Shown here piece by piece: positions 250 through 62,520 of a stretch of 64,000 nucleotides of DNA. The DNA is from Mobula hypostoma (Eukaryota), in NCBI RefSeq assembly GCF_963921235.1, contig NC_086097.1, forward strand, positions 21,578,001 through 21,642,000, in the 5' to 3' direction. The translations under genes and the position numbers were made by a program. Positions within the stretch are counted from its first letter, which is position 1. Every line of letters starts with the position of its first letter. The notes below the pieces were generated by a model. That model saw nothing but the letters and a program-made list of their open reading frames with translations, did no database searches and was not told where the DNA came from.

Positions 250-1100
250 CGTTCCTTTAGAACATAGGTAAGAAGGAATTTTTTTAGCCAGAAGGTAGTG
301 AATCTGTGGAATTAATTGCCATAGATGGCTGTGGAGGCCAAGTTGTTACAGTATATTTAAAGCAGAAGTTAATACGTACTTAGGCTGTCAAAGACGAGAA
401 AATCTGCGGATGGCTGGAAATTCAAGCAACGCACACAAAATGCTGGTGGAACGCAGCAGGCCAGGCAGCATCTATAGGAAGAGGTACAGTCGATGTTTCG
501 GGTCGAGACCCTTCGTCATAACTAACGGAAAAAAGAGATAGTAAGAGATTTGAAAGTGGAGGGGGGAGGGGGAGATCGGAAATGATAGGAGAAGACAGGA
601 GGGGGAGGGATAAAGCTAAGAGCTGGAAAGTTGATTGGCAAAAGGGATACAAGACTGGAGAAGGGGGAGTATCATGGGACAGAAGGCCTTGGAAGAAAAA
701 GGGGGAGGGGAGCACCAGAGGAAGATGGAGAACAGGCAAGGAGTTATTGTGAGAGGGAAAGAGAGAGAAAAAAAATTAAAAATTAAGGATGGGGTAAGAA
801 GGGGAGGAGGGGCATTTCCTCCCCCTCCTGTCTTCTATCATTTTGGATCTCCCCCTCCCCCTCCCCCTTCCACTTTCAAATCTCTTACTATCTCTTCTTT
901 CATTTAGTCTTGACGAAGGTTCTTGGCCCAAAACGTCGACTGTACTTCATCCTATAGATGCTGCCTGGCCTGCTGCATTCCATCAGCATCTTGTGTGTGA
1001 GGCTGTCAAAGGTTATGGGGAGAATGCGATTGAGAGTTAAAATAAATCAGCTATGATTGAATGGTAGAGCAGACTCGATGGGCTGAATGCCCTCATTCTG
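250..1100 (+). mobile_element. CR1 LINE 3' fragment interrupted by the 394-999 insertion
   Basis: CR1 3' motifs (gtgaatctgtggaat..gctgtggaggccaag, ggttatgggga, tail hairpin gggctgaatgccc) continue on either side of the duplicated aggctgtcaaag. Confidence 0.8.
394..999. mobile_element. Fold-back Penelope-like element (PLE) 3'-end insertion with 12-bp TSD
   Basis: TSD aggctgtcaaag at 382-393 and 1000-1011. Arms ~430-611 and ~816-999 are reverse complements. Homologous to the region downstream of the GIY-YIG stop in the PLE at 29053-30140. Degenerate hammerhead cores in both arms. Confidence 0.85.
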
Positions 1101-1820
1101 CTCCTAAGTCTTATGGTCTATGAATGATAGTAGAATTGATATTATAAGGGGTCCTGGATTCAAATATTGTCTCTTTATCACCACAATCAGAGACATAGTC
1201 CTTATCACAGTATCATAGATGCAGACTTTGAAGGGATTGGTTCGAAGTTGGGTCTTTCCAACTCAGGCTCAGCACCTGATGTCATTACCTTTTCCTGTTG
1301 ATGTTTTGCATTTATCTGGAGATCCAACTCACAAAATTAGCACTGGAATCATTTGACAAGGTATGACAGCAATATTTAAGAAATATTTGGACTAACTCAC
1401 GAACAGGCAGGAAATAAAGTGTTAGGGATTTTGTGCAGGCAGATAGGGTTAGTTTAAAGTGGCGTCATGGTCAGCACTGACTTTGTGGGCTGAATGGCCC
1501 GTTCCTTTGCTGTACTGTTCAATATTCTGGTTACTATCTTATAAGGTGTGAGCTGTGGAGGACCCCACGATGAACGTGAATGATCATGCATGGACTTGCA
1601 AAAATTGGCTCTTTCAAAGCCAGCCTAAACACAAGCAAAAATTAAAACATTGACTTTCTAAATGACTGTAAGCTTCTGAAGTGTGTAACTGCTTTAAAAT
1701 CTCTGTTTGTTAGGTTTGTTTTGAAGTTTTAGGAACCAGAAACAATTAGTAGTTTACACCAGTAAATGATTAGTGAAAGGTTATCATTGTTTGATGTTCA
1801 CCGAGCTTGGCAATTAGCTT

Positions 1821-1860
1821 GCAGACGTTTCTTCACCAACCAAGGTGACATCCTCAGTGC
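1821..1860 (-). ncRNA. Minimal hammerhead ribozyme motif (second family), in a probable PLE pseudo-LTR fragment ~1760-1990
   Basis: Minus strand: gca CTGAGGA tgtcacc ttggtt ggtgaa GAAA cg TC tgc. Stem I gca/tgc, stem II tcacc/ggtga, palindromic ACGT stem III. Upstream TATATAAA (1896-1903) and two CCAAT boxes. Confidence 0.65.
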
Positions 1861-2724
1861 GCAGTGGTTGGTGTTTCTCTCTGGGATTGCTCGTGTTTAT
1901 ATAGGCCCCCCTTCGCTTGCCTCAGTCCTGATTGGCTACGCCTTCAGTTGACTATCAAATCCTATTGGCTCGTGTTTCTTTGACTCATTTATTATACAGC
2001 CAGGAACAGGCCCTTCAGTCCACTATCTTCATGTCAACCATCAAGCACCCATCTACACCAATAGTATTTGCCAGAAATTGGCTATAACCTTGGTGATTCA
2101 AGTACTCATTAGATACCTGTCTCCACTACCCCCCTCTGAGTGAAATAATTCCTCCTTAGATCCCCTCTAATCTTCTTACCCCTTCCTGACACCTAAGCTC
2201 TTCAGTTTCAGATACAAGGTTGTGAGTGACTGTACAAGTCTCCAATCTTGGTTTGAATTCTTTGTGGCAAAACTTCTTTTGAACAAGGTTCCTTTTGTTC
2301 CTCTTTGGCCACCTTCCGGTGGTCAATGGATTTTTCTAATTTGCTCAATATTTCCAGCCAGGCGTTCTCTGTGAATATAATTAGAGACATCTTAGAGAGA
2401 AATGGAGGGATACGTAGGAGTTAAAGCTTAGCGTAAGTTAAAGGCCAGCACAACGTCGTAGGCTGAAGGGGCCTGTAATGTTCTGTAGAGTTCTACAGTA
2501 TATTCAATAATCCATTGGAGTCAATATAGTCACTGATTCTGCAAGGAGATTTCCCAGGGAAACTATATGAAGCAAGAGACAAACTACAGAAAGTACTCAG
2601 TGGATTGGGCAGCATCTATAGAGGCAAGGAGCTTCCAATAATTTGGGTGATGTCCTTGCGTCATCAGCCCTGGTGCAGGGTTGACTTTCCATATGCTGCC
2701 TGACCTGACCCCAGAGAAGACAGT

Positions 2725-4300: not shown

Positions 4301-4340
4301 CCAAAGTACAAAGTAAATTTATTATCAAAGTGCATACATG

Positions 4341-9590: not shown

Positions 9591-11865
9591 TATCTGGTGG
9601 GGGATTGGATGGGGTGGAGGTCTTTGCATTAGGCTGGCTGCTTTACTGAATCAGTGAGAAATGAAGACACCACCCATGGAGAGGAGGCTGGTTTCCGTGA
9701 TGTGTGAACTGTGTCTGCAGCTCCCTGAAGTTTCTTGTGCACCCAGGCCGAGCAGTTGTCATACCAGGCCGTGATAGGTACATCCAGAGTGAATGTTTTC
9801 TACGGTGCGTTTATAAAAATTGGTGTAGGTCAATGGGCACATATCTGATTTCTTTCCTGAGGAAGTAGAGGCACTGGTGCACTTTCTTGACCATTGTGTC
9901 TACGTGGTTAGATCCAGGACAGATTATTTATTAATTGAGATACAGTGCAGAGTAGGTCCTTCCAGCCTAATTGTCACAGGACTATTTACAAAAACCAATT
10001 AACCTACCAGCCAGTACATCTTTGGACTGTGGGAGGAAACCAGAACACCCGGAGGAAACCCACGCAGTCACGGGGAGAATGTACAAACAAGCAGTGGCTG
10101 GAATTGAACCCAACACTGGTATTGTAAAGCGTGCTAACCACTACACTACTGTACTAATATTTACTCCTAGTAACTTGAAACTCTCATCCCTCTTAACCTT
10201 AGCACCACTGATATCAATAGGAGCATGTACACCACCCCTCTCCTGAACTCAGTGACCAGCTCTCGTGCTTTGCTGGCAAAAAGGTTGTTGTCATGCCATG
10301 TCACTAAACTCTCTATAACCTTTGACACTCTTACTAATTATTTATCAACCTCCACTTTAAATATACCCAATGACCAGCCTCCACAGCTGTCCGTGACGAT
10401 GAATTCCACCTTGTGGCTACAACCATTTTTCTTCATCTCTGTTCTATAAGAACATCCTTCTATTCTAAGGCTGTGCGCTTTGGTCCTAGACTTCCCACTA
10501 CAGGAAACATCTTCTCCACGTCCTCTCTGTCTAGGCCTTTCAATATTGAATAGGTTGAAATGAGATCTCATCTCATTTTTCTAAACTCCAGCAAGTACAG
10601 GCTTAGAGCCATCAAACACTACCCTTTCATTCTTGGGATCGTTTGACCTCCTTTGAAATATCTCCAATATCAGCACATCCTTCCTTAGATTGTGGTCTGA
10701 CCAATGGCTTCTAATTAGGAAATAAAATTAAAGTCTTTTGCCATTGAAGGCTAATCAGTGAACCCCCTTTCTCAACAACTCCTTCTGTTGTGCCACCTAG
10801 TGGAGAAGAGGAATGGTTTTGTCTGTGGGCCTGAGAAATCTTGCACACAAGGAGTGTACTTGGCTGGAACCACTTGTATGAAGAAATGTCTTGAGCAAGT
10901 GGAGAAAATTGGCAAGAAAGAAAGAAAATTGTAGTTAAAAGAAAAAACGTAATTTTGTAAATTAGGTTGGAAGCATTTTCAGTTTTTAGAAATGACATTT
11001 TTTAGCAGAAAATGTGACTCGAAATTTGAAAGAGAGCAGATGCTGGGACAGCATGCATTTGAACCGAGTTGGGTTAGCTACAGATAAATTGATAGCAGTG
11101 CTGATTAATCCTCAGAAAAATGCAGCTTGGAGATCTGTTTGCCTGCATAATAGATACTGTACATCAGATTAATTCATTATACATGGAGCTTTCTGAGATT
11201 CTCGCAGATGCACAGTGTGCCACAATATAAATGCAAATCTTCCCCCTTTATCTGTTTTGAAGCGGGAATGAAGGTTGCAGGTTTAGGGCAGATAAGTCAA
11301 ATGCTTCAGGGAACACAGTGCTTCCCAGTCACTGAGACCAAAAAGAAAATATTGGTGCTCTTCAAGTGTAATCCTCTCGGATAGAATAGTGGAGATTTCA
11401 GGATTAAGAAAATATTCCCTTCCTAAACCTCTTCTCTTCATTTCTCTCCCTAAATTAGAGATTGTGCTTTATGCAGAGCTGTCCAATGAAAATTGAATTG
11501 ATAAAGCAACTTGTATTTTACATACAATTAGTGTAAGGCGGAAAAGGCTCGATGGCACGGTAATGTAAAACACTTCACAGTTGGAGTGATCAGGATTTAA
11601 CTCCTGTCGCTCCCCATACAGAGTCTGAATGTTCTCCCTGTCACCATGTGGGTTCCTTCGAGTGCTTCTGCTCCCCCCACGTTCCAAAAGACAGGCACGT
11701 TAGTAAGTGGTGGGTATGCTTTGTTCAAGCCGACACTTGCGGTCTGCCCCGGCACATGCTCGGACTGTGTTGGTCGTTGATGCAAATACCGTGTGTTACT
11801 GTATGTGTTTATGCAGATGTGAGAAATACAGCTAATCTTTAATATTCAAGATCAAGATTGTTTAA

Positions 11866-12111
11866 CGCAGCAGGCCAGGCAGCATCTATAGGAAGAGGCG
11901 CAGTCGACGTTTCAGGCCGAGACCCTTCGTCAGGACTAACTGAAGGAAGAGTGCTCACACACTCACTCTTCCTTCAGTTAGTCCTGACGAAGGGTCTCGG
12001 CCTGAAACGTCGACTGCGCCTCTTCCTATAGATGCTGCCTGGCCTGCTGCGTTCACCAGCAACTTTGATGTATGTTGCTTGAATTTCCAGCATCTGCAGA
12101 ATTCCTGTTGT
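11866..12111. mobile_element. Young fold-back PLE insertion with perfect 90-bp inverted repeat and 14-bp TSD
   Basis: TSD tcaagattgtttaa at 11852-11865 and 12112-12125. Arms 11864-11953 and 11964-12053 are exact reverse complements with a 10-nt spacer. Confidence 0.9.
11979..12016 (+). ncRNA. Minimal hammerhead ribozyme motif (mirror copy on - strand at 11901-11938)
   Basis: tagtc CTGACGA a gggt ctcg gcct GAAA cg TC gactg. Intact core boxes, 5-bp stem I, stem II with CUCG loop, loop-less palindromic ACGT stem III. Predicted cleavage after C12011. Confidence 0.75.
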
Positions 12112-12264
12112 TCAAGATTGTTTAATGTCATTTCCAGTACACAAGTATAAAGGAGAACAAAATAATTGGTACCCCAGATCTGATGCAGCACAAATACACA
12201 ATAAAGATAAAGAACACAAAAATTAAAAAAAAACACAATAAATATAAATACATAAAATAGCTTA

Positions 12265-24815: not shown

Positions 24816-25969
24816 TCGATCCTATCATGCTTTGTGGTCAAGTTACAATATTTAATTACTGCAGAGTACATCATTAAAGCTATGATTTAAACAATTAGTA
24901 TCACACATATTCAATGTATTCTTAACAAGCCTAGTTAATGTAGATTAGGTGGTGGCCGTTGTTTATGGTTTGTGTGTCCCTAAGGCACACTTTCCTCATG
25001 CTCGCTGTACCAAACTATATCTGAGAAATGCAAATTGAAGATTAAAGATTTAAAGATGAGTTTTATTTGTCACAGAGACGTGAAAACATACAGGGGGAAT
25101 CCATTGTTTGCATCAAATCAAATCAGGTTTGTGCAGAGCAGTCCGCAACTGTGCGCAAGCTTCCTGCAGCAACTTGGTATATCCACAGCTCATTAACTCT
25201 AACCATACCAATTTAGAATGTGGGAGGAAACCAGAACACCCAGAACAAACACATGTGATAAGAGCGATGGACAGAACGTACAGCTAGTGCCATTTTCCCA
25301 GGGTGGCAGTGCCTAATATAAGAGGACATTTTTATGAGCTGATTAGAGGGAAGTATGGGGGGTGGTGATTTTAGATACAAGAGGTTCTACAGGTGCTGGA
25401 AACCCAAAGCAACACAAGCTGAATATTGGAGTAACTCAGCTGATCAGGAAGCATCTATTGAGATTTTCCATTTGAGGACGAGATATTTCATCAAGATCAG
25501 TGGGTGGACGTTAGAAGTAGGGTTTCAAACAGACTGGGAGATGATGGGACGTGCTGCCAGGGGTTGTGGGAGAGGCAGGTATATTAGGGACACTAAAGAG
25601 ACTCTTAGATAGGCACATGGATGAAAGAGAAATGGAGGGCTGAATGGGAGGGAAAGGTCAGATAGATTTTGGAGTAGGTTAAAAGTTTGGCACACACTGT
25701 GGGCTGAAGGGCTTGTACAGTGCTGTACATAAGAACATAAGAAATAGAAGCAGGAGTAGGACATCTGGCCTATTGAGCTTGCTCTGCCAGGCAATAAGAT
25801 CATTTACTGTTCTATGTTCTATAATTCCGCGGTGTGGAGTTTATATATGTGACTACATACATGAGTTTCCCTTGGGTTCTCCAGTTCCTCCTGTATCATA
25901 ACGACATGCCTGTGGTCAGACGGATCGGCCACTGTAAGTTACCTCAAGTGTCATCTCTGAGGATTGTCT

Positions 25970-27729: not shown

Positions 27730-29035
27730 CTTTACTAATCAAGAACCTCTGCTTTAAATATACCCAATGAATTGGTCTCCACAGCCATCTGCAGCAATGA
27801 ATTCAGCAGGTTCACAACCCTCTGGCTAAAGAAATTTTTCCTGATCTCTGTTCTAATGGGACGTCCCTCTATTGTGAAGCTGGTTCTAGACTCCCTCACT
27901 ATAGGTCAACATGTTCTCCAAATATTCAATATTTGACAGGTTTCAATGAGATCCCCCCCCCCACCCCATTCCTCTAAACTCCAGTAAGTACAGGCCCTGA
28001 GCCATCAAACGCTCCTCATAAGTTAACCCTTTAATTTCTGGGACTATTCTCATGAATCTCCTGTAGACCATCTCCAATGCGGCACTTGCTTTCTTAGATA
28101 AGGGGCTGAAGTCTGATCACAACACTCCAATGGGGGCTGACCAAAGCCTTATAAAGCCTTCGCATTACATTCTTCCTTTTATATTCTTGTCCTTTTAGAA
28201 TATAGGCTGGTGTCAGTTTTTAAAAACTAATCTTATTTATTTATTTATCGATCCATCCATCCATCCATGTGCAGTGTGGAATAAACCCTTCCGGTCCCTT
28301 GAGCAATGCCTCCCAGCAATCCTCTAATTTAATCTCAGCCTAATCATGGGACAACTTACAACGACCAATTAACCTACTAACCGGTACGCCTTTAGACTGT
28401 GGGAGGAAACCGGAGTACCCAAAGGTAACCTACATGGTCATGGGGAGAACGTAGAAACTCCTTACAGACAGTGGTGGGAAATCAACCCAGATTGCCTGCA
28501 CTGGAAAGCATTGTGCTAACCATGACACTACTGTGTTGCCCCTCTCAAAACGAATGCTAACATTGCAATTGCCTTCCTTACCACCGACTCAACCTGCAAG
28601 TTAGCCTTTATGGAACCCTGCACGAGGACTCTCAAGTCCTTTTGCACCTCTGATTTCTGAAATTTCTGAAAATAGTCTATGCCTTTATTCCTTCTATCAA
28701 AGTGCATGATCTAACGCTTCCCTGCACTGTATTCAGTCTGCCACTTCTTGGCCCATTCTCCTAATCTGTCCAAGTCCTTTTGCAGACTCGTAAACACAAA
28801 ATACTCTGCAGATGCTGGGGTCAAAGCAACACTCACAACACGCTGGAGGAACTCAGCAGGTCCGGCAGCATCCGTGGAAACGATCAGTCAATGTTTCGGG
28901 CCGGAACCTGAATACTGACAAAGGGTTCCGGCCCGAATCGTTGACTGTTCATTTCCACGGATGCTGCCCGGCCTGCTGAGTTCCTCCAGTGTGTTGTGAG
29001 TGTTGCTTTTGCAGACTCTCTGCTTCCTCAACCAT
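27730..29035 (-). mobile_element. CR1 3' fragment interrupted by a V-SINE (~28245-28540) and a fold-back PLE (28790-29005)
   Basis: Similar to the minus-strand CR1 copies at 23100 and 36705. Confidence 0.75.
28790..29005. mobile_element. Fold-back PLE insertion with 13-bp TSD
   Basis: TSD cttttgcagactc at 28777-28789 and 29006-29018. Arms ~28823-28908 and ~28924-29009. Decayed hammerhead ctgacaa agggttccggccc gaat cgtt gactg. Confidence 0.85.
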
Positions 29036-29052
29036 ATCAGTATAGAATCAGT

Positions 29053-30140
29053 GCAACACACACAAAATGCTGGAGGAACTCAGTGGCCAGGCAGCATCTA
29101 TGGAAATGAGTACAGTGGACGTTTCGGGCAGAACTGGAGAAAAGATGAGGAGTCAGAGTCGGAGGATGGGGGAGCGGAGGGAGAAGTACAAGGTGATGGG
29201 TGAAACCTGGGTGCGGGGGAGGTGGGAGTAAAGAGCTGGGAAGTTGATTGGTGAAAAAGATACAGGGCTGGAGAAGGGGGAATCGGATAGGAGAAGACAG
29301 AAGGCCATGGAAGAAAGAAAAAGGGGGGGAGGAGCACCCGAGGAATGTGATAGGCAGGCAAGGAGATATGGTGAGAGAGGAAAATGGGAATGGAGAATGG
29401 TGAAGGGGGGAAGGGCATTACTGGAAGTTTGAGAAATCAATGTTCATGCCATCAGGTTGGAGGCTACCCAGATGGAATATAAGGTGTTGTTTCTCCAACC
29501 TGAGTGTGGCCTCATTGAGGCAGTAGAGGAGGCCATGGACTGACATGTCGGAATGGGAATGGGAAGTGGAATTAAAATGTGTGGACACTGGAAGATCCCA
29601 CTTTTTTTGAGAAGCGATCTTGCAATGTACAGGAGGCCACACCGGGAGCACTGGATACAGTAGATGACCCCAGTAGACTCACAGGTGAAGTGTCACCTCA
29701 CCTGGAAGGTCTATTTGGGGCCCTGAATGATAGTGAGGGAAGAGGTGTAGGAGCAGTTATAGCTCTTGTTCCGCTTGCAAGGATAAGTGCCGAGAGGGAG
29801 ATCAGTGGGGAGGGATGAATGGATAAAGGCGTTGCGTAGGGAGTGATCCCTGCGGAAGGCAGAAAGTGGGCAGGAGGGAAAGATGTGCTTGGTGGTGGGA
29901 TCCCACTGGAGATGGTGGAAGCTACGGAGAGTTATGTGTAGAACGTGGAGGTTGGTGGGGTGGTAGGTGAGGACGAGGAACTCTATCCCTGGTGGGGTGG
30001 CGGGTGAAGTGGTGAGGGCAGTTGAACACGAAATGGAAGAGATGCGGTTGAGGCTAGCATTGATGGTGGAGGAAGGGAGGGTCCTTTCTTTGAAGAAGGA
30101 GGACATCTCCTTAGTTCTAGAATAAGATGCCTCATCCTGA
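29053..30140 (-). mobile_element. Penelope-like retroelement 3' portion: post-RT linker, GIY-YIG endonuclease C-terminus, 3' pLTR region
   Basis: LVLTYHP..HLQWDPTTKHIFP..AFRRDHSLRN..GTYPC, and PVSTHFNS..H..LRLEKQHLIFHLGSLQPDGMNIDF* (ORFs 29711-30238, 29418-29651). Downstream sequence matches the fold-back inserts. Confidence 0.85.
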
Positions 30141-30499
30141 GAGGAGACGGAGGTATTGCACCTGTTAAATACATCCTGGGCAGAAAAGAGTTGTTTGCTG
30201 TAAGTCTGTTTTCCACATCTTGGTCCATGGCCTTGCACTTTAAGTCCTTGGCCAGCTACTCCTTAAATATGCAAGGGGTTTTGCCTTTCAACAGTAGGTT
30301 CTAGACTGCCACTGCCCTCTTTGCAAACAGATATTCCTCAAATCCCCTTTGAACTTTCTACTATCTGTAAACCTTTGCCCACTGGTTATTGAATCATTTT
30401 TTTCACGGCTAGAACTTTCCAAGCCACTCTGTCTAGGTCTCTTCTTGGTACTAAATCTTCCCTCAATAAATCTTCTCTCACCCTCCTCTGCCACAAGGA

Positions 30500-31495
30500 A
30501 AACGACCCTGCCTCCTCTAACCTCTGCTCTTATTGGCTTATCTACATATTGTGTCAGGAAACTTTCCTGAACACACCTAACAAACTTCACCCCATCTAAA
30601 CCCCTTGCTCTAGGGAGATGCCAATCAATATTTGGGAAATTAAAATCTCCCACCACGACAACCTTGTTATTATTACACCTTTCCAGAATCTGTCTCCCTA
30701 TCTGCTCCTCGATGTCCCTGTTACTACTGGGTGGTCTATAAAATACACCCGGTAGAGTTATTGACCCCTTTCTTGTTTTTAACTTCCACCCACAGAGACT
30801 CAGTAGACAATCCCTCCATGACTTCCTCCTTTTCTGCAGCCGTGACACTATCTCTCAACAGCAGTGCCACACCCCCACCTCTTTTGCCTTTCTCCCTGTC
30901 CTTTCTGAAACATCTAAAGCCTGGCACTCTAAGTAACCACTCCTGTCCCTGAGCCATTCAAGTCTCTGTAATGGCCATGATAGCTCCAAGTACTGACCCA
31001 CGCTCTGAGCTCATCTGCTGTGTTCATGACACATCTCAAACCCTCAGTCTGAGTGCATCCCTTCTCTATCACCTGCCTATCTTCCCTCTCACACTGTCTC
31101 CAAGCTTTCTCTATTTGTGAGCCATCTGCCCCTTCCACTATCTCTTCAGTTCGGTTCCCACCCCCCCAGCAATTCTAGTTTAAACTCTCCCCAGTAGCCT
31201 TAGCAAACCTCCCCACCAGGATATTGGTCCCCCTGGGAATCAAGTGCAACCCGTCCTTTTTGTACAGGTCACACCTGCCCCAAAAGAGGTCCCAATGATC
31301 CAGAAATCTGAATCCCTGCCCCCCTCAGCCACGCATTTATCCTCCACCTCATTCTATTTCTATACTCACTGTCGCGTGGCACAGGCAGTAATCCCGAGAT
31401 TACTATCTTTGCGGTCCTGCTTCTCAACTTCCTTCCTAACTTCCTGTAGTCTGTTTTCAGGACCTCCTCCCTTTTCCTACCTATGTTGTTGGTAC
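30500..31495 (-). mobile_element. CR1 5' fragment (ORF1 end, ORF2 AP-endonuclease)
   Basis: RGGGVALL, VFYRPP, VVVGDFNFPNIDW. Confidence 0.85.
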
Positions 31496-40622: not shown

Positions 40623-41615
40623 CTACCTTTGATTTATTTCTGTTTTCCCCTTCCTCAGCCCTATCACTCCGGTTCCCATCCCCCTGCCAAATTGGTTTAA
40701 ACCTCCCCCAACAGCTCTATTAAACCTGCCTGCAAGGATTTTGGACCCCTTTGGGTTCAAGTGTAATGCGTCCTTTTTGTACAGGTCGTACCTCCCCCAG
40801 AAGAGGCCCCAATGATCCAGGAACCCGAAACCCTGCCCCCTACACCAGTCTCTCAACCATACTTTAATATGCCTGATCATGCTACTCTTGCATGGCACAG
40901 GCAGCAGTCCTGAGATTACTACCCTGGAGGTCCTGCTTTTCAACTTCCTACCCAACTCCCTGAATTCTCTCTTCAGGACCTCCTCCCTTTTTCTACCAAC
41001 ATTATTGGTACCAACATGTACCAAGACTTCTGGCTGTTCACCCTTTCCCTTCAGAGTTCTCTGCACTGAATCTGAGACATCCTGTACCCTGGCACCTGGG
41101 AGGCAACACACCATGCGGGTAACTCTATCAGGCTGACAGAGCCTCCTGTCTGTTCCCCTCACTATGGAATCCCCTACGACTACTGCATTCCTCATCTTCT
41201 TCTCTCTCTTCTGCACCACGGAACCAGGCCTAGTGCCAGAGACCCAATTGCTGTGGTCGTCCTCTGTCAGGTCACCCCACTCAACTGCATCCAAAATGAG
41301 ATAACGATTACTGAGGGGGATGGCCACGGGTGTGTTCTCTAATATCTGAGCTCTTCTCTTCCCTTCCCTGACGGTCACTCACTTGTCTAACTCCTGCAGT
41401 CTCGGGGTGACTAACTCCCTGTAGCTCCTATCTACCTCCTGCTCACCTTTCCTAATAAGCTGCAGGTCATTGAGCTGCAGCTCCAGGTCCCTAACACGGT
41501 CTCTCAGGAGCTGCATCTCAGTGCACCTGGGGCAGATGTGGCCATCTGGGAGACTGGAAGATTCCCAGCATTCCCACATCTGACACCCAGAACAAAGCAC
41601 TAACCCTGCAGACAT
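40623..41615 (-). pseudogene. CR1 ORF1 (Cys-rich N-terminus, coiled coil, SGNH esterase) with a single in-frame TGA
   Basis: ORFs 41379-41615 and 40623-41378 are contiguous in one frame. Motifs VVGDSIVRG, CCLPGARV, VHVGTNN, DALHLN. TGA at 41381-41379 aligns with TGG in the copy near 62300. Confidence 0.85.
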
Positions 41616-47810: not shown

Positions 47811-48736
47811 TGTAAGTGTATATGGTGAATGTAGCTGATCCTTGAATAATAAAAAAAATTGACTCTGATTTGTCTCTTTCTGCTTGCGTTTTCATAGTTA
47901 ATCTCATTCGGTCTCACCCTCCCACGGACTTTTTTTTGTCCCTCGCCCCCTTTCTGTTGAGGTTACGACTTGTTCCCATTCTACATTTCTGATGAGAGGT
48001 CATCAGCTGGTCCGGTTGGCTCTGTTTCTCTCTCCACAGACACTGCCTGACGAGCATTTTCTGAATTTTATTCAGATTTTCAGTATTTTACTTTAAAAGG
48101 AATGGTGTAATTAGTGGAGCCGCAGCCTCCTAGCTATTGCTGACCACTGCTGCCATTCGCAGAACAAAGAACCTAACAGCCTATTCAATGGCTGTACCAC
48201 CTCATCCTCCAGCAGGCATTCCCTTTGCTTCACCTATTGTCCTCCACCACCATCTCTGCTATTGAGACCAGCTTGCCTCCTCTCCTTCTCAGTTCTGCTG
48301 AAGGATCGTTGACCCTTTAGGTTTACTGATTTCTCCTTCCACAGACTGGCTGAGTTCTTTCAGCATTTCTGCTTTTGCTTCTGGTTCCAGCATCTGCTGT
48401 TTTATTTTTTTGTCTTCCTCTGATGCTGTCTGTGTGGAGTTTGCATGTTCTTCCTGTGTTCCTTTGGATTTCCTTCAGGTGCTCCTGTTTCCTCCCACAT
48501 TTCAAAAGCATGTTGTTTGATGGATTACGTGGCCATTATATATTGCTCCTAGTGTGTAGACAAGTGCTAGAATCTGGTGTGAGTTTTTCTGATCGAAAAG
48601 CTCCAAAACATGGACCTCTGCACTTCCCTCTGCATCTGGATCCTTGACTTCTTTACCAGGAGACTACAGTCTGTGCGGATCGCAAATAACATCTCCACCT
48701 CATTGATAATCAACACTGGCAGATCTCAATGATATG

Positions 48737-51166: not shown

Positions 51167-52704
51167 ACTTACAATGACCAATTAACCTACCAACCAGTAT
51201 GTCTTTGGACTGTGGGAGGAAACTGGAAGGAACCCATACAGCCACGGGGAGAACATACAAACTCCTTACAGACCGCGACAGGAATCGAACCCGGGTCGCC
51301 TGTACAAAGTGTTGTGCTAACCATTATGCTACCGTGCCGCTCCACGGTTGAAAGAGATAACAAATCAGCCATGGTATAATAGTGGAGCAGACTCGATGAG
51401 CTGAGTGACCTAATCCTGCTCTTACTGTAAATTCCATGCAGACAGCACCCAAGGGATAAGATCAAACCCAGCTCACTGGAGCTGTGAGCACGGCCTTCTA
51501 CCCTACCACTCACTAGGGCTGGTTGCAACTGTTTGAAACACAAAGTTGAGTGGAGCTGTGATTCCTGTATTCTGCTAATTTCCGTGTGTTGCTTATCTAT
51601 TGCTATGGTTAATAGTCTGAGAGTGGTGCGTATGATTAGATCATAAAAGCCTAACAGGCATCAATTGGAAGGCCAAATTAAATTCATAGTCATTGAACTG
51701 TGTCCTTGGATAGCAACAGCTAAGGTAATTGGGATTTAATACTGGCTATTCTGATTTAATTAATATATTGTTAGAAGCATAATCACTTACCTTTTTGATC
51801 TCTGTTAAATAAAGAGTTGCATTTTGTTACACAAGCGGTTTGCTTGCTCATATATATTCAAAACCTTGTTGTTATGCCAGCAATCAGTATTCATGATTAG
51901 CTTGAACTTCTGCATTATTTTGCAGATGTAGAGGCCAGTAAAGGGTCAAGTAGTGTTGTCTGTGTGTGCTGGACATCTGTGTGAATACCCCTTGCCATTT
52001 TTCTCTGATGAAGTGTCTTAGTCCAAGATGTATCCATCGATGCTACCTGACTTGCTGAGTTCCTCCAGCACTTTTTGTGTGCTACTCTGGATTTCCTGCA
52101 TCTGAAGAATCGTTCTTTTTGTATTTATTGCAATGTTATGGCTTTGTTATTGGGTTAGCAATCCAGGGGCCTGTGCCAGTCATCTTGTGAATACAGCTTC
52201 AAATCCTACCACAGGAGTTTGTGATTTTGAATTTGGGAACACAGACTGATGATACTCTCTGGCTTCGAGTCCATTCATTTCCATTGTAAGCATTGACTAA
52301 CGCTGTCCTCGCTTATCCGTGGCTCCATTTCTTCATCCATCCTTTGCTGCCTGGAGCTCCCACCATGCACCTCTCACAAAAAATACAGAGTTCACATAAC
52401 TTCAGGCTGGAGTTCAGGCCTGTCCAGGCTGGAGCTCCGTCCATGCACCCCCCCCCCCCCAAAATAAAACTGGAGTTTATTTGAAACTCTTCCGTTGTAT
52501 TTGTCATAACCTATGGTTGTTGACATTTTTTGGCCTCACTGTTTCCAACCATATCCCCAGTCCCCTGTCATCCAGTTCAGTCCCATTTCCCCTCTTGGTG
52601 CCTTTCACTCCCACACGCGACCTACTGCATCTCGTATCCACATCCCCGGTTGGCTTCATCGGCATCTCATCCCTCCTTTATTTGGTTCCTCATATCATCT
52701 TCCA

Positions 52705-53099: not shown

Positions 53100-54895
53100 G
53101 ACTCTTGTGTCTCCACTTAATATCTTCTTCTATCTTTCCCTCCCCCATCTGCTGTTTGTTTTTATTTATTTGTCCCAGCTATCACCCACCAGCCACTTTG
53201 TCCCCACTCCACATCCCCCCCCCCCCGCTTCCTGGTTCCATCTGGCCATCAACTGGTTCCACCTATCACCTTCCAGACCCTGCCTTATCCTTCACTCTTC
53301 ACACTTTATACTGATTATCTCCCCTCTACACTCTTGGTCCTGATGCAGGCTCTTGGCCAGAAACATTGCCCACTCCCCTGCCTCCGCAGATACTGGCTGA
53401 CTCGTTGAGTTCACCCAGCAGTTTGGTTGTTGCGCCAGTTTACAGCTCTACAGTCTCTTGTGTCTACAGCGAACTATCAGTTTTCATTCAAAGTGACAAC
53501 AAGACAACTTCAAAAGGACTTGAATGAAATTCAAAATGATGCAAATGCAGGAAATCTGAAATATATGCAGAAAATACCAGAAATGCTCAATAAGTCAGGC
53601 AGCATCTGTGGAGACAGAACAGAGTTAACATTACAGGTGTTCCCGCTGCTATCTGTAAGGAGTTTTACGTTCTCCCTGTGACTGTGTAGGTTTGCTTAAG
53701 ATAGTTTAATGCCATTTCCAGTATGCACATTTAAAGAAGATGAAATAATTGTTAATCCAGATCCAATGCAGCATGAAAAGAAACACAATAAGGCAAAGAA
53801 CACAATAATAATAAAAAAACAAAATAAATATAACTACATAAGGTAGTTTATATACATAAATAGTAGGTGCTCCTGTTTCTTCCCACTTTCCAAAGACATA
53901 CAGGTGAGTAGGTTAGTTAGTCACAAAGGTATAATTTGTTTGCACGGGCTCACTGGGGCAGAAGGGCCTGTCACTGTGATGTGGGAAGAAAAGCAAATAG
54001 ATGAAAGTCAGTTGTCGGAACTGGAGAAGGGGGAAACCGAATAGGCTGTAGGTTGCAAAGAGGGTGGGCCAAGGGAGTATATGTGATGAAGTGAGCCCAA
54101 GGTTGCTGTGGAGATAAGATGGCCACCTGAGTAATGGATAAATGGTGGCAGTGAGAGAGGAGCAAAGGAACGAAAAAGCTGTAAGAAGAGGGAAATGAGA
54201 GAGAGGAAGAACACAAACAAAGGAATTGAAAAGGTAATGCACACACATACAAAATGCTGGAGGAACTCAGCAGGTCAGGCAGCATCAATGAAGAGGAATA
54301 AAGAGTCGATGTTTCGGGCTGAGAACCTTCATCAGGACTCAAAGCACTCCAGACCTTAGAGTTCCAGTCAAATAAGTTAACCGTTGTAGAAATACAGTAA
54401 AAACATGTTTCCAACAATAACAATGTCTTACATGCCTTCAGTGTACTGATATAAAGGTGTAAAGTTAACACGGCCTGACCTGCTGGGCATGTCCACAAGC
54501 CTGAGTGTTACAATTGTTTTAGAGCTTCTGTGTTCCTTTACCCAGTTTCTCTCTTGCTGACTATTCCCTTTTACCAGATGGCCTTGCTTGCAGATTGCCA
54601 CAGGGCCTAACCCTATACCAGATCTCCCCTTTGCCCTCTCTCCCCCAACTTCTCTATACTTTATACCGATTATTTTCTCTCTTTCCCAGTTCTGATGAAA
54701 GCTCACCGACATAAAACATTGATGCCACTTCTCTTTCAGCAGCTTAAGGAGTATCTGTAAAACCACAAGAGGTTCTGCAGTTGCTGGAAAATGTTGAACA
54801 ACATACACTAAATCCCAGAGGAACTCAGCAGGCTAGGCAGCAGCAATGGAGGAAAATGAGTAGTCAGCATTTTGAGCAGAGATACTTTATCAGTT
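53100..54895. mobile_element. Cluster of decayed PLE 3'-terminal fragments in alternating orientation
   Basis: Repeated aaatgctggaggaactcagcagg..cagcatc motif and degenerate ctgatga..gaaa cores (~53340, 54303-54340, ~54692). Similar fragments at ~2580-2720, 25375-25500, 47985-48090, 52000-52110 and 57540-57650. Confidence 0.65.
54303..54340 (-). ncRNA. Hammerhead motif copy (PLE family 1)
   Basis: gagtc CTGATGA aggttctcagccc GAAA ca TC gactc. Perfect 5-bp stem I, weakened stems II and III. Confidence 0.55.
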
Positions 54896-55147
54896 CAACT
54901 TCGAGTTCAAGTTCAAGTTCAATGATCGTTCAACAATACATGAATATAACCAAATGCAGCAGTGTTCTTCTGGGGCCAAGGTCCAAAACACATTACCAAC
55001 AACACCCAGCATTCTGCACATAACACGTAGCACAAATAGCACATATGGTTACGATTTCAGAAAACATACAGTCACAAAGGAGAGAAAAAAAATATATCCC
55101 AAGGTCCTTGAGTGGCATGACTGTAAATTGATGGTAAGTTGTTCTTC

Positions 55148-57392
55148 CACCAAGTGAACACCAGAGACATCACCCAGCAAACACCAGAGACATCACCGAG
55201 CGAACACCAGAGACATCACTGAGCAAACACCAGAGACATCACTGAGCGAACACCAGAGACATCACCAAGCGAACACCAGAGACATCACTGAGCGAACACC
55301 AGAGACATCACCAAGCGAACACCAGAGACATCACCAAGCAAACACCAGAGACATCACCAAGCAAACACCAGAGACATTACCAAGCAAACACCAGAGACAT
55401 CACCGAGCAAACACCAGAGACATCACCAGGCGAACACCAGAAACATCACCGAGCAAACACCAGAGACATCACCGAGCAAACACCAGAGACATCACTGAGT
55501 GAACACCAGAGACATCACCGAGCGAACACCAGAGACATCACCGAGCGAACACCAGAGACATCACTGAGTGAACACCAGAGACATCACCGAGCAAACACCA
55601 GAGACATCACCAAGCAAACACCAGAGACATCACTGAGTGAACACCAGAGACATCACCGAGCGAACACCAGAGACATCACTGAGTGAACACCAGAGACATT
55701 ACCAAGCAAACACCAGAGACATTACCAAGCAAACACCAGAGACATTACCAAGCAAACACCAGAGACATCACTGAGTGAACACCAGAGACATCACCGAGCG
55801 AACACCAGAGACATCACCCAGCAAACACCAGAGACATCACCAAGCAAACACCAGAGACATCACCAAGCAAACACCAGAGACATCACCAGGCGAACACCAG
55901 AAACATCACCGAGCAAACACCAGAGACATCACCGAGCGAACACCAGAGACATCACTGAGTGAACACCAGAGACATCACCAAGCGAACACCAGAGACATCA
56001 CTGAGTGAACACCAGAGACATCACCAAGCGAACACCAGAGACATCACCGAGCAAACACCAGAGACATCACTGAGTGAACACCAGAGACATCACCAAGCAA
56101 ACACCAGAGACATCACCAAGCAAACACCAGAGACATCACTGAGTGAACACCAGAGACATCACCGAGCGAACACCAGAGACATCACCCAGCAAACACCAGA
56201 GACATCACCAAGCAAACACCAGAGACATCACCGAGCAAACACCAGAGACATCACTGAGCAAACACCAGAGACATCACTGAGCGAACACCAGAGACATCAC
56301 CGAGCAAACACCAGAGACATTACCCAGCAAACACCAGAGACATCACCGAGCAAACACCAGAGACATCACCAAGCAAACACCAGAGACATCACCGAGCGAA
56401 CACCAGAGACATCACCGAGCGAACACCAGAGACATCACCGAGCGAACACCAGAGACATCACCGAGCAAACACCAGAGACATCACCGAGCAAACACCAGAG
56501 ACATCACCAAGCAAACACCAGAGACATCACCGAGCAAACACCAGAGACATTACTGAGCAAACACCAGAGACATCACTGAGCGAACACCAGAGACATCACC
56601 AAGCAAACACCAGAGACATCACCCAGCAAACACCAGAGACATCACTGAGTGAACACCAGAGACATCACCGAGCGAACACCAGAGACATCACCGAGCAAAC
56701 ACCAGAGACATCACTGAGCGAACACCAGAGACATCACCCAGCAAACACCAGAGACATCACTGAGCAAACACCAGAGACATCACCGAGCAAACACCAGAGA
56801 CATCACCTAGCAAACACCAGAGACATCACCGAGCAAACACCAGAGACATTACCGAGCAAACACCAGAGACATCACTGAGCGAACACCAGAGACATCACCG
56901 AGCAAACACCAGAGACATCACTGAGCGAACACCAGAGACATCACCGAGCAAACACCAGAGACATCACTGAGCAAACACCAGAGACATCACTGAGCGAACA
57001 CCAGAGACATCACCGAGCGAACACCAGAGACATCACTGAGCGAACACCAGAGACATCACCGAGCAAACACCAGAGACATCACTGAGCGAACACCAGAGAC
57101 ATCACCGAGCAAACACCAGAGACATCACTGAGCAAACACCAGAGACATCACTGAGCGAACACCAGAGACATCACCGAGCGAACACCAGAGACATCACTGA
57201 GCGAACACCAGAGACATCACCGAGCAAACACCAGAGACATCACTGAGCAAACACCAGAGACATCACCAAGCAAACACCAGAGACATCACCAAGCAAACAC
57301 CAGAGACATCACTGAGCGAACACCAGAGACATCACCAAGCAAACACCAGAGACATCACCAGGCGAACATCAGAGACATCACTGAGTCAACAC
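55148..57392 (+). repeat. 23-bp minisatellite, ~97 units, consensus aacaccagagacatcacYRagYR
   Basis: First aacacc at 55157 and last aacact at 57388 are exactly 97 x 23 apart. ORFs 55775-56008 and 55959-56579 are translations of the repeat. Confidence 0.97.
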
Positions 57393-57929
57393 TGGAGGGC
57401 AGCGTTGACGGGCCTCCAGGGACAAAGTTTCAGTCCTGACCTCTGACACAACTCATGTGGAAGTTTGCAACTTCTCCCTGTGACCACGTGGATTTCTTCG
57501 AACATCCCAAAGGCATTGTAGTTGGCAGGTTAATTTTCAAAGAGTCCCGATGAAGGGTTTCAGCCTGAAATGTTGACTGTTCATTTCTGTCCAAAAGTGC
57601 TGCCTGACCTGCAGAGTTCCTCCAGCATTTTTGGTGTATTGAATCTGTGGAACTGTTGCAGAAAGTAGTTCAAAGTTCAATGTACATTCATTGTTAAAGT
57701 ATGTATATGTCACCGTATGGTACCTTGAGTTTCTTTTTCCTGTAGCCATTCACAGTGGGACAAGGTACTACAACAGAGTTTATAAAAATCATGCAGAACA
57801 AAGCCTGACAAAGAGCCAAAGTGCAAAAGAGGACACTAATAAATTAAAATAAATATTATTGAGAACATGAGGTGTAGATTCCTTGAAAGTGAGTCAATAG
57901 GTTTACAGCACAGTATCAGGGCCTTCTGA

Positions 57930-58451: not shown

Positions 58452-61400
58452 CACTAGACACTAGAACACTACAGCACAGTACAGACCCTTCGGCCCTTGA
58501 TGTTGTGCTGACCCATATATTCCTTAAAAAAAGTACTAAACCCACACTACCCCGTAACCCTCTATTTTTCTTTCATCCATGTGCCTGTCCAAGAGGCTCT
58601 TAAATATCGCTAATGTTTTAGCCTCCACCACCATCCCTGGCAAGTCATTTTAGGCACCCACAACCCTCTGTCTAAAAAAATTACCCCTGATGCCTACCCT
58701 AAACTTCCCTCCCTTAACTTTGTACATATGCTCTCTGGTGTTTGCTATTCGTGCCCTGGGAAACAGGTACTGACTATCCACGCTATCTATGCCTCTTATA
58801 ATCTTGTAGACCTCTATCAAGTCCCCTCTCATCCTTCTACACTCCAAAGAGAAAAGTCCCATCTCTGCTAACCTTGCCTCATAAGACTTGTTTTCTAATC
58901 CAGGCAACATCCTGGTAAATCTCCTCTGCACCCTCTCCATAGCTTCCACATCCTTCCTGTAATGAGGTGACCAGAACTGAACACTCTTCTGGTCTCACCA
59001 GAGATTTGTAAAGTTGCAACATGAACTCTCTACACTTGAACTCAATCCCCCTATTAGTGAAGCCTAGCATCCCATTGGCCTTCTTAACTATCCTATCAAC
59101 CTGTGCAGTGACCTTGAGGGATGTATGGATTTGAACCCCAAGGTCCCTCTGTTCATCCACACTCTTAAGTAACTGACCATTAACCCTGTACTCAGCCTTC
59201 TGGTTTGTCCTTCCAAAATGCATCACCTCACACTTACCCGGATTGAACTCCATCTGCCACTTTTCTGCCCAACTCTGCATCCTGTCTATATCCTCTTGTA
59301 ACCTTCGACAACCTACAACTCCATCCACAACTCCTCCAATCTTCGTGTCATCCACAAACTTACTCACCCATCCTTCCACCTCTTCATCCAGGTCATTTAT
59401 AAAAATCACAAAGAGCAGGGGACCCAGGACAGATCCTTGCTGCACTCCACTAGTCACCGACCTCCAGGCAGAACACTTTCCTTCCACTACTACCCTCTGC
59501 TTTCTTCCTGTAAGCCAATTTTTTATCCAAACAGCCAAGGTTCCACTGATCCCATGCCTCATGACTTTTTGGATGAGTCTCTCATAGGGGACCTTGTCAA
59601 GTGCCTTGCTAAAATCCATGTAGACCACATCTACCGCCCTACCCTCGTCAATTTCTTTTGTTACCTCTTCAAAAAACTCAATTGGGCTCATGAGGCATGA
59701 CCTTCCCTTCACAAAGCCATGTTGACTATCCTTGAGTGGACTGTACTTCTCCAAATGCTCGTAGACCCTATCCCTAAGAATCCTTTCCAATAGTTTGCAG
59801 ACCACCGAGGTAAGACTCACTGGACTATAGTTCCCAGGATTCTCCCTATTACCTTTTTTAAAGAAGGGAACTACATTTGCCAATCTCCAACCTCCGGCAC
59901 CTCCCCTGCAGCCAAAGAGGATTCAAAGATCATAGCTACTGCTCCAGCGATCTCTTCTCTCACTTCCCACAGCAACCTGGGGTATATCATATCCGGCCCT
60001 GGGGACTTATCAATCCTGATGTTTTTAAGAAGATCCAACACTTCTTCCTTAATCCCTACATTGTCCAGCACACAGGCCTGTTCTATTTTGACCTCACCCT
60101 GATCAAGGTCCTTTTCACTTCTGAATACTGAAGCAAAGTATTCATTTAGGACCTCCCCAACCTCCTCTGCCTCCAGGCACATGTTGCCTTCTTTATCCTT
60201 TAGTGGTCCCACCTTCATTCTTGTCCTCCTTCTGTCCTTCACATACGCATAGAACGCCTTGGGGTTCTCCTTAATCCTACATGCCAAGGCCTTCTCATGC
60301 CCCCTTTGAGCTCTCCTAAGTCCTTTCTTAAGCTCCTTACAGTTCTCATGAGCCCCTCCTGCTTCCTGCTTCTTATATCTAACATATGCTTCCTTCTTCC
60401 TCTGACAATTTGCCTCACGTGTTTCATCAGCTGCTGTTCCCTTTTCCTACCATTTTTTCTTTGTCTCAGTGGGACAAACCTAGCCTGAACCCAGTACAAG
60501 TGGTCCCTAAACTTCCTCTATATTACTTCTGTGCCTTGAACATGTTTCCAATTTACTCTCGCTAGTTCCTGCCTCACAGTTAGCCCTTCCCCAGTTAAGC
60601 ACTTTCCCATTCTGAATGGTTTTTATCCTTTTCCATAGCTATGCTGAAGCTAAGGGAGTTGTGGTCACTCTCACCAAAATGCTCCCCCACCAAGAGGTCT
60701 GCCACCTGACCAGGCTCATTACCCAGAACTAGATCCAGTATGGCCTCTCCTCTGGTCGGCCGGTCCACATACTGTGTCAGGAATCCTTCTTGAGCACACC
60801 TGACAAATTCAGCCCCATCTATCCCCCTTGCAGTCAGGAGGTGCTAGTCAATATGAGGGAAGTTGAAATTGCCCATAACTACACTGTATTTCCTGCACCA
60901 TTCTAAAATTTGCCTGCTTATCTGCTCCTCGGTGTCCTGAGGGCTATTTGGGTGCCTATAGACTACTCCCAGCACAGTGATTGATCCCTTCCTATTTCTG
61001 ACTTCCACCCACACCGACTCAGTGGACACTCCCTCTGCAGCGTCCTCCCTTTCTATAGCCGCGATACTATCCCTGACCAGTAATGCTACTCCCCCCACCC
61101 TTTCCTACCTCCCATCCTATACCTTTTAAAACACCTAAACTCCGGTACCTGCATCAGCCAATCCTACCATCCCTCCAGCCAAGTTTCAGTAATGGCCACA
61201 ACATTGTAGTTCCATGTACTGATCCATGCTCTAAGTTCATCCCCTTTATTCCTAATACTCCTAGCGCGGAAATAGACATATTTCAACCCTTCTAACTGGC
61301 TACATTCATATCTTGTCCCCTGCCTGTCCGTCCTCACCAACTCAGAACACATAGCATCATGCCCTTGTCCTTCTATCCTAATCTCTGCATTCACATTCTG

Positions 61401-62520
61401 ATTCCCACCCCCCTGCCAAACTAGTTTAAACCCTCCCCAACAGCTCTAGCAAACCTGCCCACCAGAATATTGATAGGAAGTATAGTCGACATTTCGGGCC
61501 TAGGCCCTTTGTCTGTACCCCTTCCTATAGATGCTGCCTGGCCTGCTGTGTTCCACCAGCATTTTATGTGTGTTGCTTGAATTTCCAGCATCTGCAGATT
61601 TTGTCGTGTTGGCATATATAGTATCTAGCAAACCTGCCCGCCAGGATATTGGTCCCTTTCCAGTTCAGGTGCAGCCCCTCCTTTTTGTACAGGTCAGACC
61701 TTCCCCAGGAGAGATCCCAATGATCCAGAAATCTGAACCCCTGCCCCCTGCACCAACTCTTCAGCCACACATTCATCTGCCATAACTTCCTGTTCCTACC
61801 CTCTCTGTCTCGTGGCACAGGCAGCAATCCCGAGATTACCACCCTTGAGGTCCTGCTTTTTATCTTCTTTCCTAACTCCCTATATTCCTTCTTCAGGACC
61901 TCATCCCTAATCCTATCCATGTCATTGGTCCCTACATGGACCACAACATCCGGCTGCTCACCCTCTCTCCTGAGAATACCGAGAACTCAATCCGAGATAT
62001 CGTGGTCCTTGACACCAGGGAGGCAACAGACCATCCAGGAGTCTCGATCTCTCCCACAGAACCTCTTGTCTGTCCCCCTAACTATCGAATTCCCTATCAC
62101 TACTGCTGTCTTTTTTCCCCTCCTTCCTTTGTGAGCTGAGGGTCCAGTCTCGGTGCCAGAGACGCGACCACTACAACTTGTCCCTGGTAGGTTGTCCCCA
62201 CCAACAGTATCCAAAACGGTATACTTATTGTTGATGGGAATGGCCACAGGGGTACACTGCTCATTCTGTCTATTCTCCTTCCCTCTCCTGACAGTCACCC
62301 AGTTACCTGTCTCCTTACTTTTAGGGGTGACTGTCTCCCTGAAACTCCAATCTATTACTGCCTCTGCCTCCCGAATGATCTGAAGTTCATCCAGCTCCAG
62401 CTCCCTAACTCAGTTTGTCAGGAGCTGCAGCTGGATGCACCTTTTACAGGTGTAGTCATCAGAGACAATTGTGCTGTCCTTGACTTCCCACATCTTACAA
62501 TCAGAGTACTGGACTGCCCT
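58452..62520 (-). mobile_element. Near full-length decayed CR1 LINE (ORF1 SGNH, EN, RT, tail)
   Basis: ORFs 61987-62298, 61564-61944 (VHVGTND, GLHLN), 61164-61394, 60844-61098, 59871-60287, 58879-59883 (QGSVLGP, KFVDDTK) and 58650-58949. Confidence 0.93.
61473..61623. mobile_element. Short fold-back PLE insertion with 28-bp target duplication
   Basis: tctagcaaacctgcccaccagaatattg (61445-61472) and tctagcaaacctgcccgccaggatattg (61624-61651). A ~40-nt inverted piece is followed by the PLE terminus. Confidence 0.8.

Follow-up and report, generated by a model that had tools for sequence, protein, structure and literature searches.

Each of four inserts in the window (the whole 64,000-nucleotide stretch of Mobula hypostoma DNA analysed here) consists of two head-to-head, 5′-truncated 3′ ends of a Penelope-like element (PLE) of the Neptune type. 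The enclosing TSDs are 12, 14, 13 and 28 bp long in inserts A, B, C and D (Table 1). We put at about 0.9 the probability that the inserts stem from a PLE and arose at integration, and the step involved was probably priming from both target strands. The inserts are real but mostly ordinary, since they have the form published for a typical PLE insertion. The earlier note had proposed that such units are made at each integration and are not copied from one master MITE; the variable TSDs, the one-sided tails, the four junctions and the sister arms in B and C make this very likely right, yet it is not new, because the PLE literature already describes an origin at integration (PMC3846280, PMC8557442, PMC2377424). 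As the architecture is also known, the finding as stated changes little, and the extra value of the inserts is the record that they keep of how PLEs integrate. In the literature covered, which included few subscription papers, we found no paper on such a structure in sharks or rays.

Table 1. Inserts A to D and the neighbouring PLE remnant; arm positions are counted from the predicted hammerhead cut.
Feature	Position	Strand	Remarks
A left TSD (12 bp)	382-393		exact copy at 1000-1011, 12/12
A tailed arm	394-816	-	about ORF stop (-325) to tail end (+98); ribozyme core mutated
A tailless arm	817-999	+	about -117 to +62; core mutated
A right TSD	1000-1011		exact repeat of left TSD
B left TSD (14 bp)	11852-11865		exact copy at 12112-12125, 14/14
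B tailless arm	11866-11953	-	about -46 to +40; predicted intact minimal hammerhead core 11899-11938
B junction loop, 10 nt	11954-11963		arm assignment uncertain
B tailed arm	11964-12111	+	about -50 to +98; predicted intact minimal hammerhead core 11979-12018
B right TSD	12112-12125		exact repeat of left TSD
C left TSD (13 bp)	28777-28789		13/13 with 29006-29018
C tailed arm	28790-28909	-	about -21 to beyond +98; begins in helix II
C tailless arm	28910-29005	+	about -28 to +65
C right TSD	29006-29018		repeat of left TSD
Copy E, 3′ UTR/pLTR, single-armed, tailless PLE	29053-29417	-	14-nt deletion removes half of hammerhead
Broken C-terminal PLE ORF	29418-30160	-	post-RT region, Cys linker, GIY-YIG endonuclease
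D left TSD (28 bp, 2 mismatches)	61445-61472		26/28 with 61624-61651
D tailless arm	61473-61513	-	about -26 to +18; core mutated
D tailed arm	61513-61623	+	from +3 (+1 if one mismatch is allowed) to tail; about 10 further bases
D right TSD	61624-61651		repeat of left TSD

The positions and TSD lengths given for the inserts in the earlier note were correct, and an identical search at random position pairs returned exact repeats of at least 12 bp in 0 of 3000 cases. For the empty-site test we used paralogous host repeats within the window. Insert A sits inside the 3′ end of a probable CR1-like LINE and its site is spanned by four paralogues, with the target word single in each; insert C lies inside the RT region of what appears to be a CR1-like LINE, and here two paralogues run across gap-free and contain the target word once. 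Two paralogues with a single target copy also span the site of D, and for B no spanning paralogue was found in the window. A TSD search round ten single-armed copies gave nothing exceeding background except for an 11-mer at copy J, which is at the same time tail sequence.

A tail of about 35 nt is present on exactly one arm of every insert (4/4). Between the arms 156 of 174 paired positions are identical in A, 88 of 88 in B and 75 of 82 in C; in D only 8/8 bases pair and the segments overlap by about 15 nt. The tailed arm of A contains a match to protein P0001 at 816-697, and the tailless arms of B and C share microhomology with the target (2 nt) and with the right TSD (4 nt), respectively. 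Nesting of the arms is seen in A and B but not in C and D. The tailless arm of C extends further 5′ and holds about -28 to -22, which is missing from the tailed arm, the latter being also without the CUGANGA half of the hammerhead core. In D the tailless arm holds the ribozyme part (-26 to -1) absent from its partner, and the tail is found solely in the other arm. It had been noted that the fold-back point varies, and all four junctions do differ. The description as fold-back hairpins, however, is apt for C (z -21.2) but not for D (z -1.69; 13 of 200 shuffles as good). D is thus an inversion whose two arms overlap only briefly, and not a fold-back.

As the earlier note had stated, the inserts are homologous to the 3′ UTR behind a GIY-YIG ORF, the left arm of A being identical to 29053-29419 at 276 of 352 aligned bases. 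The ORF had been placed at 29053-30140; this span combines UTR and ORF remnant, and the coding part at about 29418-30160 is broken by two in-frame stops and one frameshift. The remnant is 68% identical to P0003 across 186 aa. Taken alone it matched 0 Pfam families, and among its homologues P0003 matched GIY-YIG (E 4.6e-4) and P0005 RVT_1 (E 1.1e-4), each scoring slightly below the curated cut-off. Judging from these homologues, RT plus a GIY-YIG endonuclease at the C terminus would be encoded in one ORF as in endonuclease-positive (EN+) PLEs; the window copy itself is without the RT core. The window copy, P0003, P0004 and P0008 have a CxxC between the VIY and LYI words, which corresponds to the two cysteines between GIY and YIG of the CCHH motif defined for EN+ PLEs (PMC8557442), and one histidine region of the window copy is lost at the frameshift. 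The CX2-5CxxC linker between RT and EN of the Neptune and Nematis clades can be recognized as C-x4-C-x2-C in P0001-P0004, with the middle Cys replaced in the window copy; together with the domain order this linker points to the Neptune type. A minimal hammerhead is predicted in the pLTR, again as in EN+ PLEs. The hallmark of such elements, an inverted 5′-truncated copy with a one-sided 30-40 bp tail and a variable TSD (PMC8557442), is seen in 4/4 inserts. The earlier note had also called for the autonomous partner; none of the ten protein matches, which span 271-423 aa, is full-length.

In B and C the nearest neighbour of each arm is its own partner (88/88 and 75/83). The left arm of A is nearer to the right arm of D (90/97) than to its own partner (109/125), and the left arm of D is no closer to its right arm than to other arms; a common template for both arms is not established for A or D. 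The ends of the arms can be compared with other copies. The tailless ends at +62 (A) and +65 (C) match those of two copies with a single arm, +66 in E and +65 in G, and among four public contig sets each run has 1161-1654 records that exit the arm at window position 432 (+60) into unrelated flanks, which agree by only 0.38-0.39 beyond this point, while 495-881 records continue as tail at 413. Twelve contig runs with shares under 0.2 were left out as evidence, except X9.

Insertions with inverted pLTRs are known from endonuclease-positive PLEs, for example Pen2a_Av of Adineta vaga (PMC3846280) and the D. virilis Penelope (PMC2377424 Fig. 1C), with a general scheme in PMC8557442 Fig. 2, and copy-variable inverted arms have been reported in fly strains transformed with Penelope. 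The ray inserts share with them the adjacent inverted 5′-truncated copy, the head-to-head junction, the one-sided 30-40 bp tail, the one variable TSD round the unit and the copy-dependent arm length. They differ in that both copies are reduced to the last 40-420 nt, so that the unit looks like a MITE, in TSDs whose 12-28 bp exceed the 8-10 bp seen in the rotifer examples, and in the far greater abundance of the family. For Schistosoma mansoni, Cervera and de la Pena (2014, PMC4209133) describe minimal hammerheads that occur in pairs, one on each strand, at a distance of 100-700 bp, a spacing found also for the opposite-strand pairs of A and B, and the minimal type I hammerhead, the palindromic helix III, the unpaired base before helix II and the PLE terminal repeats are common to both; that account, as far as covered, gives no TSDs or junctions, and in the ray inserts most cores are decayed. 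Non-LTR retrozymes of animals (bioRxiv 10.64898/2026.07.22.740005) are likewise short non-coding pLTR-related units with hammerheads, but these are described as tandem arrays, whereas the ray arms are head-to-head pairs within one TSD and not head-to-tail.

We propose that each insert arose in a single integration, dead on arrival, of a Neptune-type PLE that is abundant in rays. From PLE biochemistry, the GIY-YIG endonuclease would nick both target strands 12-28 bp apart, which gives the TSD, and both free target ends may then prime reverse transcription on element RNA. One priming at the far 3′ start site would yield the tailed arm. The other would yield the tailless arm, beginning in A and C at a second site that lies about 35 nt upstream, and in B and D further inside. 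Both cDNAs would stop early, and a head-to-head joint with at most slight microhomology would link their 3′ ends; in the literature covered we found no demonstration of such joining. The hammerhead would be a pLTR passenger, the junction position not being set by the ribozyme. Priming from both strands is supported by the one tailed and one tailless arm in 4/4 inserts. In vitro the anole PLE protein, a predicted dimer, cuts and extends both target strands and starts reverse transcription at two sites bounding the tail (PMC11167929); this is a Poseidon element, whereas the inserts of rays are Neptune-type.

Both PMC8557442 and PMC3846280 treat the formation of inverted repeats by PLEs as unresolved, and for Penelope we found no mechanism paper on twin priming or template switching in a literature search covering few subscription papers. 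The earlier note had offered both. L1 5′ inversion by twin priming (PMC2912911) is similar in that priming occurs at both ends of the target, the two cDNAs become joined and one TSD results, and D with its nearly non-overlapping segments resembles it. The arms of A-C, however, cover a common 82-174 nt, beyond one pass over one RNA segment, and the ray inserts are without poly(A) and depend on a different enzyme. A simple template switch onto the nascent cDNA is unfit for C and D with their non-nested arms. More generally, the reverse transcriptase could turn back on the target-primed cDNA, or prime on an antisense template, still at integration, and the end of the inverted copy would then be joined to the other target end. 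Self-priming of this kind was inferred from palindromes at inverted junctions by Arkhipova et al. (PMC3846280), the small hairpin of helix II coincides with or adjoins the junctions of C and D, the nested arms of A and B fit it equally well, and the identical B arms share two inner bases unmatched by arm A. We nevertheless consider it rather unlikely and favour priming from both strands, because the arms of C and D each hold sequence which the other lacks, because the tailless ends of A and C coincide with those of single-armed copies as a random end of the copied strand would not, and because the A junction has no clear self-complementarity. This case is built on four inserts. Once inserted, a palindrome can undergo asymmetric sequence loss at its centre, which could fake non-nesting, and in C the margin is only about 7 nt.

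The other explanations are much less probable. Pre-formed palindromic masters might have been re-mobilised as a unit by PLE enzymes or a DNA transposase, and PLE enzymes can indeed move pLTR-framed sequence in trans (PMC3846280). The inserts differ in subfamily (identity 84-93% among A, B and D, 68-76% to C), so the four differing junctions alone would leave several masters possible. MITEs, however, have flush terminal inverted repeats and a fixed TSD length, and here the TSD length is variable, the tail overhangs one end in 4/4 inserts and no junction recurs among 18 profile matches in the window, which makes such masters very improbable. The public contigs hint in the same direction: among the 15 listed of 107 joints, a sample of low power, there was no high-depth shared junction, and the 3 opposite-strand joints were seen in 1-3 contigs at a depth of 10-31, compared with a summed depth of the arm, which is not a copy number, of up to 1.0e7 (X1). 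Slightly less probable still is that hammerhead cleavage sets the junction, with the enzyme running off self-cleaved RNA and the free end being turned or joined. The right arm of D begins at +3 (or +1), and three contig joints have one side at +7, +12 and +13. The +12 and +13 sides, however, coincide with the point where the alignment of a second subfamily ends (loose ends at 475), and the other seven of eight arms start at about -325, -117, -50, -46, -28, -26 and -21; the clustering of breakpoints at the cut for which the earlier note had suggested looking is not seen, with 1/8 arm starts within 3 nt. In anole, ribozyme cleavage was not required in vitro and RNA-seq ends at the cut were not found (PMC11167929). 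Least probable of all are two unrelated adjacent insertions, later recombination or an assembly artefact. The family is dense enough for neighbours (18 matches in 64 kb), but a single TSD surrounds both arms in 4/4 inserts, against none of the random pairs, and in A and C the arms differ from each other, transitions making up most of the changes (12/18 and 4/7), unlike an assembly duplication.

We tentatively suggest that ray genomes hold about 1e5 minimal two-armed inserts, a rough extrapolation from 4 inserts in 64 kb, and that non-nested arms are common among young copies. If true, this would be in vivo evidence that a PLE complex carries out reverse transcription from each of the two nicked strands of the target, using two RNAs or two passes, and joins the cDNAs head to head, and genome statistics alone would settle between dual target priming and self-priming. 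The short TSD-bounded two-armed copies of so abundant a family can be scored for nesting, end positions and microhomology. For annotation it matters that such units would be mistaken for MITEs or miRNA hairpins.

A strict hammerhead core is present in both arms of B and in copy F1. The predicted helices I and II have 85.7% of cells paired, compared with 24-59% in slid controls; 26 of 500 shuffles reach this value, with only 7 distinct rows. The 10 Rfam matches at E up to 5 included none at gathering score and none to a hammerhead family. A pattern scan of metagenome contigs gave 0 matches, and one pattern match in viral contigs was taken as chance because the surrounding PLE-like repeat is absent. 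Among the four inserts only B has an intact core (2/8 arms), and in the B hairpin this core is fully paired and buried in the duplex; to call the inserts a high-output source of ribozyme-bearing hairpins was an overstatement. Young copies such as B, if transcribed, could give long double-stranded RNA, a likelier effect than ribozyme activity.

The four inserts, designated A to D, are real and lie where the earlier note had placed them (table). All four consist of two arms in head-to-head orientation, each a 5′-truncated 3′ end of a Penelope-like element (PLE), and exactly one arm of each carries the tail, an extension of about 35 nt. Searching 3000 random pairs of positions in an identical manner never produced a repeat of 12 or more bases. 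Related host repeats in the window cross the insertion sites of A, C and D with only one copy of the repeated word, so the flanking repeats of these three are true target site duplications (TSDs); no paralogue in the window crosses the site of B. The inserts are largely as first described, including the fold-back character of three of them; insert D, however, is an inversion with just a short paired stretch and no hairpin by folding (z −1.69), and insert C is a strong hairpin (z −21.2).

Coordinates of the inserts and of other features in the window. Arm positions (tailed arm; tailless arm) are counted from the predicted hammerhead cut and are accurate to a few bases; microhomology is between target and tailless arm.
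Feature	Position (strand)	Arms	Identical bases in flanking repeats	Empty-site paralogues	Paired arm bases	Microhomology (bases)
Insert A	394-999	-325 to +98; -117 to +62	12/12 (382-393/1000-1011)	4	156/174	0
Insert B	11866-12111	about -50 to +98; about -46 to +40	14/14		88/88	2
Insert C	28790-29005	about -21 to past +98; -28 to +65	13/13	2	75/82	4
Insert D	61473-61623	+3 to past +98; -26 to +18	26/28	2	8/8	0
AT-rich bases of insert D	61609-61623
Host repeat between insert C and copy E	29006-29053
ORF remnant of copy E	~29418-30160 (minus)
Decayed single-armed PLE ends	2570-2664, 25377-25497, 48292-48397, 52004-52115, 57543-57648
Single-armed PLE ends	54236-54345 (minus), 54758-54900 (minus)
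Pyrimidine-rich stretch	54560-54745 (plus)
Old PLE ends	53336-53454 (plus), 53540-53637 (minus)
Recurring tail 11-mer	53102
Loose hammerhead matches	1857 (minus), 48006 (minus)
Decayed LINE-like ORFs	30288-30854, 40623-41378, 61564-61986
23-bp tandem array	~55100-57380 (plus-strand frames)

Decayed LINE-like ORFs crowd the window (by eye, their frames resemble RT, endonuclease and esterase, and there are many RT fragments), and three of the four inserts are located within decayed LINE-like repeats. The host repeats around inserts A and C are presumably CR1-like. No more than about 35 nt separates copy E, a single-armed tailless PLE copy with an ORF remnant, from insert C, and one host repeat holds both.

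The proposed homology to the region behind this ORF was borne out, the arms matching 365 nt there on the minus strand with 276 of 352 aligned bases identical. The remnant itself is broken by two stops and one frameshift and hit no family in a Pfam search. A protein search gave 10 matches among 189 candidates: eight are assigned to rays (Hypanus sabinus, Mobula hypostoma), another to a bamboo shark, and the tenth is known by its id only. These matches make a ray the most probable host; no full-length protein of an autonomous partner was among them. The homologue P0003 is 68% identical to the remnant across 186 aa and matches Pfam GIY-YIG (E 4.6e-4), and P0005 matches RVT_1 (E 1.1e-4), both slightly under the curated cut-off. 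Since the homologues carry a C-x4-C-x2-C linker and a CxxC within the GIY-YIG word, which PMC8557442 gives as features of Neptune and Nematis PLEs, the parent is classed on these motifs as a putative Neptune-type PLE.

The main inference of the earlier note, that the inserts originate at each integration and are not copied from a master MITE, is probably right, and in outline it is already in print. The testable MITE features, inverted repeats reaching both termini and TSDs of constant length, were absent from the four inserts. PMC8557442 lists as common PLE features an inverted 5′-truncated copy adjoining the 5′ end, a 30–40 bp tail at one end and TSDs of variable length, in all of which our inserts are alike. 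Inverted head-to-head pLTRs with 9–10 bp TSDs are shown in PMC3846280, and a curation guide counts inverted pLTRs and 3′ extensions among PLE peculiarities (PMC8969392). Among the papers searched, none dealt with this two-armed structure in sharks or rays.

The earlier note had proposed testing whether breakpoints cluster at the hammerhead cut. They do not, because only one of the eight arm 5′ ends falls within 3 nt of it; five lie between −21 and −50. The ends of the tailless arms in A and C correspond to those of two single-armed copies, E at +66 and G at +65. A sister relation of the two arms is clear in B and C only. Insert D has about 10–15 AT-rich bases past the usual tail end, possibly untemplated or flank-derived.

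If the RT turned back on its own cDNA (snap-back), the second arm would be copied from the first and the tailless arm must therefore nest inside the tailed arm. This is so in A and B, but not in C, whose tailless arm has about 7 extra core bases compared with the tailed arm, nor in D, whose tailless arm holds −26 to −1, missing from the tailed arm. Palindromes may suffer deletion at the centre after insertion, and such a deletion could imitate non-nesting. Each arm of C and D has sequence that its partner lacks, so RNA was probably the template of both arms in either insert. Such copying agrees with what PMC11167929 describes for the anole PLE protein: it cuts and extends both target strands, begins reverse transcription at two sites bounding the tail, is a predicted dimer and is active without ribozyme cleavage. 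We favour, with a probability of roughly 60%, dual target priming, in which both cut target strands would prime RT and the resulting arms would be joined head to head; self-priming as in PMC3846280 appears rather unlikely.

Four public contig sets, two of the best-matching sample and two of other organisms, were aligned to window positions 380–830. Each run had 46,673 to 68,743 contigs that matched at ≥80%, which shows the family to be highly abundant in each of the three organisms. Many records of every run exit the arm at 432 (+60) into unrelated flanks (1161–1654 records, agreement 0.38–0.39), and others continue as tail at 413 (495–881 records, agreement 0.65–0.69), which supports two 3′ ends of the PLE genome-wide. 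Among the 15 joints listed of 107, three join opposite strands, their depth of 10–31 in 1–3 contigs being near the roughly 5–20 of long single contigs, and none is a high-depth shared junction; few joints were detected relative to the records, and joint ends coincide with points where other subfamilies cease aligning, which weakens this test.

The emphasis formerly laid on ribozymes found no support. The arm motif comprises CUGANGA, an unpaired A, helix II, GAAA, a palindromic ACGU and the predicted cut, following the minimal type I definition in PMC4209133, where such hammerheads also occur paired on opposite strands 100–700 bp apart. Helices I and II both form when the 40-nt motif of insert B is folded at minimum energy. 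Helix pairing reached 85.7% of cells over 7 distinct rows versus 24–59% in slid controls. This value was attained by 26 of 500 shuffles, however, so covariation support is weak. The mean unpaired probability of the core bases is 0.001 in whole insert B versus 0.334 in its right arm alone, for which the hammerhead is not the predicted structure either. With strict cores in two of eight arms, both of insert B, and that core predicted to be buried in duplex, the inserts would be poor ribozymes; insert B, if transcribed, would form a long RNA duplex. Two loose minimal-hammerhead matches occur elsewhere; the one at 1857 lies outside every PLE profile match and could be due to chance.

A profile built from 14 arms (E < 0.001, window only) gave 18 matches, namely the 8 insert arms and 10 single-armed copies, with 14 of the 18 found by construction; the two-armed form therefore makes up 4 of 14 loci. 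In several decayed single-armed copies the alignment stops 26–40 nt upstream of the predicted cut; RT stalling near helix II may be the cause, or mere subfamily divergence. Two minus-strand ends about 410 nt apart enclose a pyrimidine-rich stretch terminating in a hammerhead-like word; together (54236–54900) they are possibly a fifth, older head-to-head arrangement of a different subfamily, for which no TSD was found. Two old ends stand tail to tail with 85 nt between them, and the tail 11-mer of the plus-strand copy recurs about 350 nt upstream, so that this may be a partial tandem tailed at both ends. The tandem array comprises about 100 copies with open frames.
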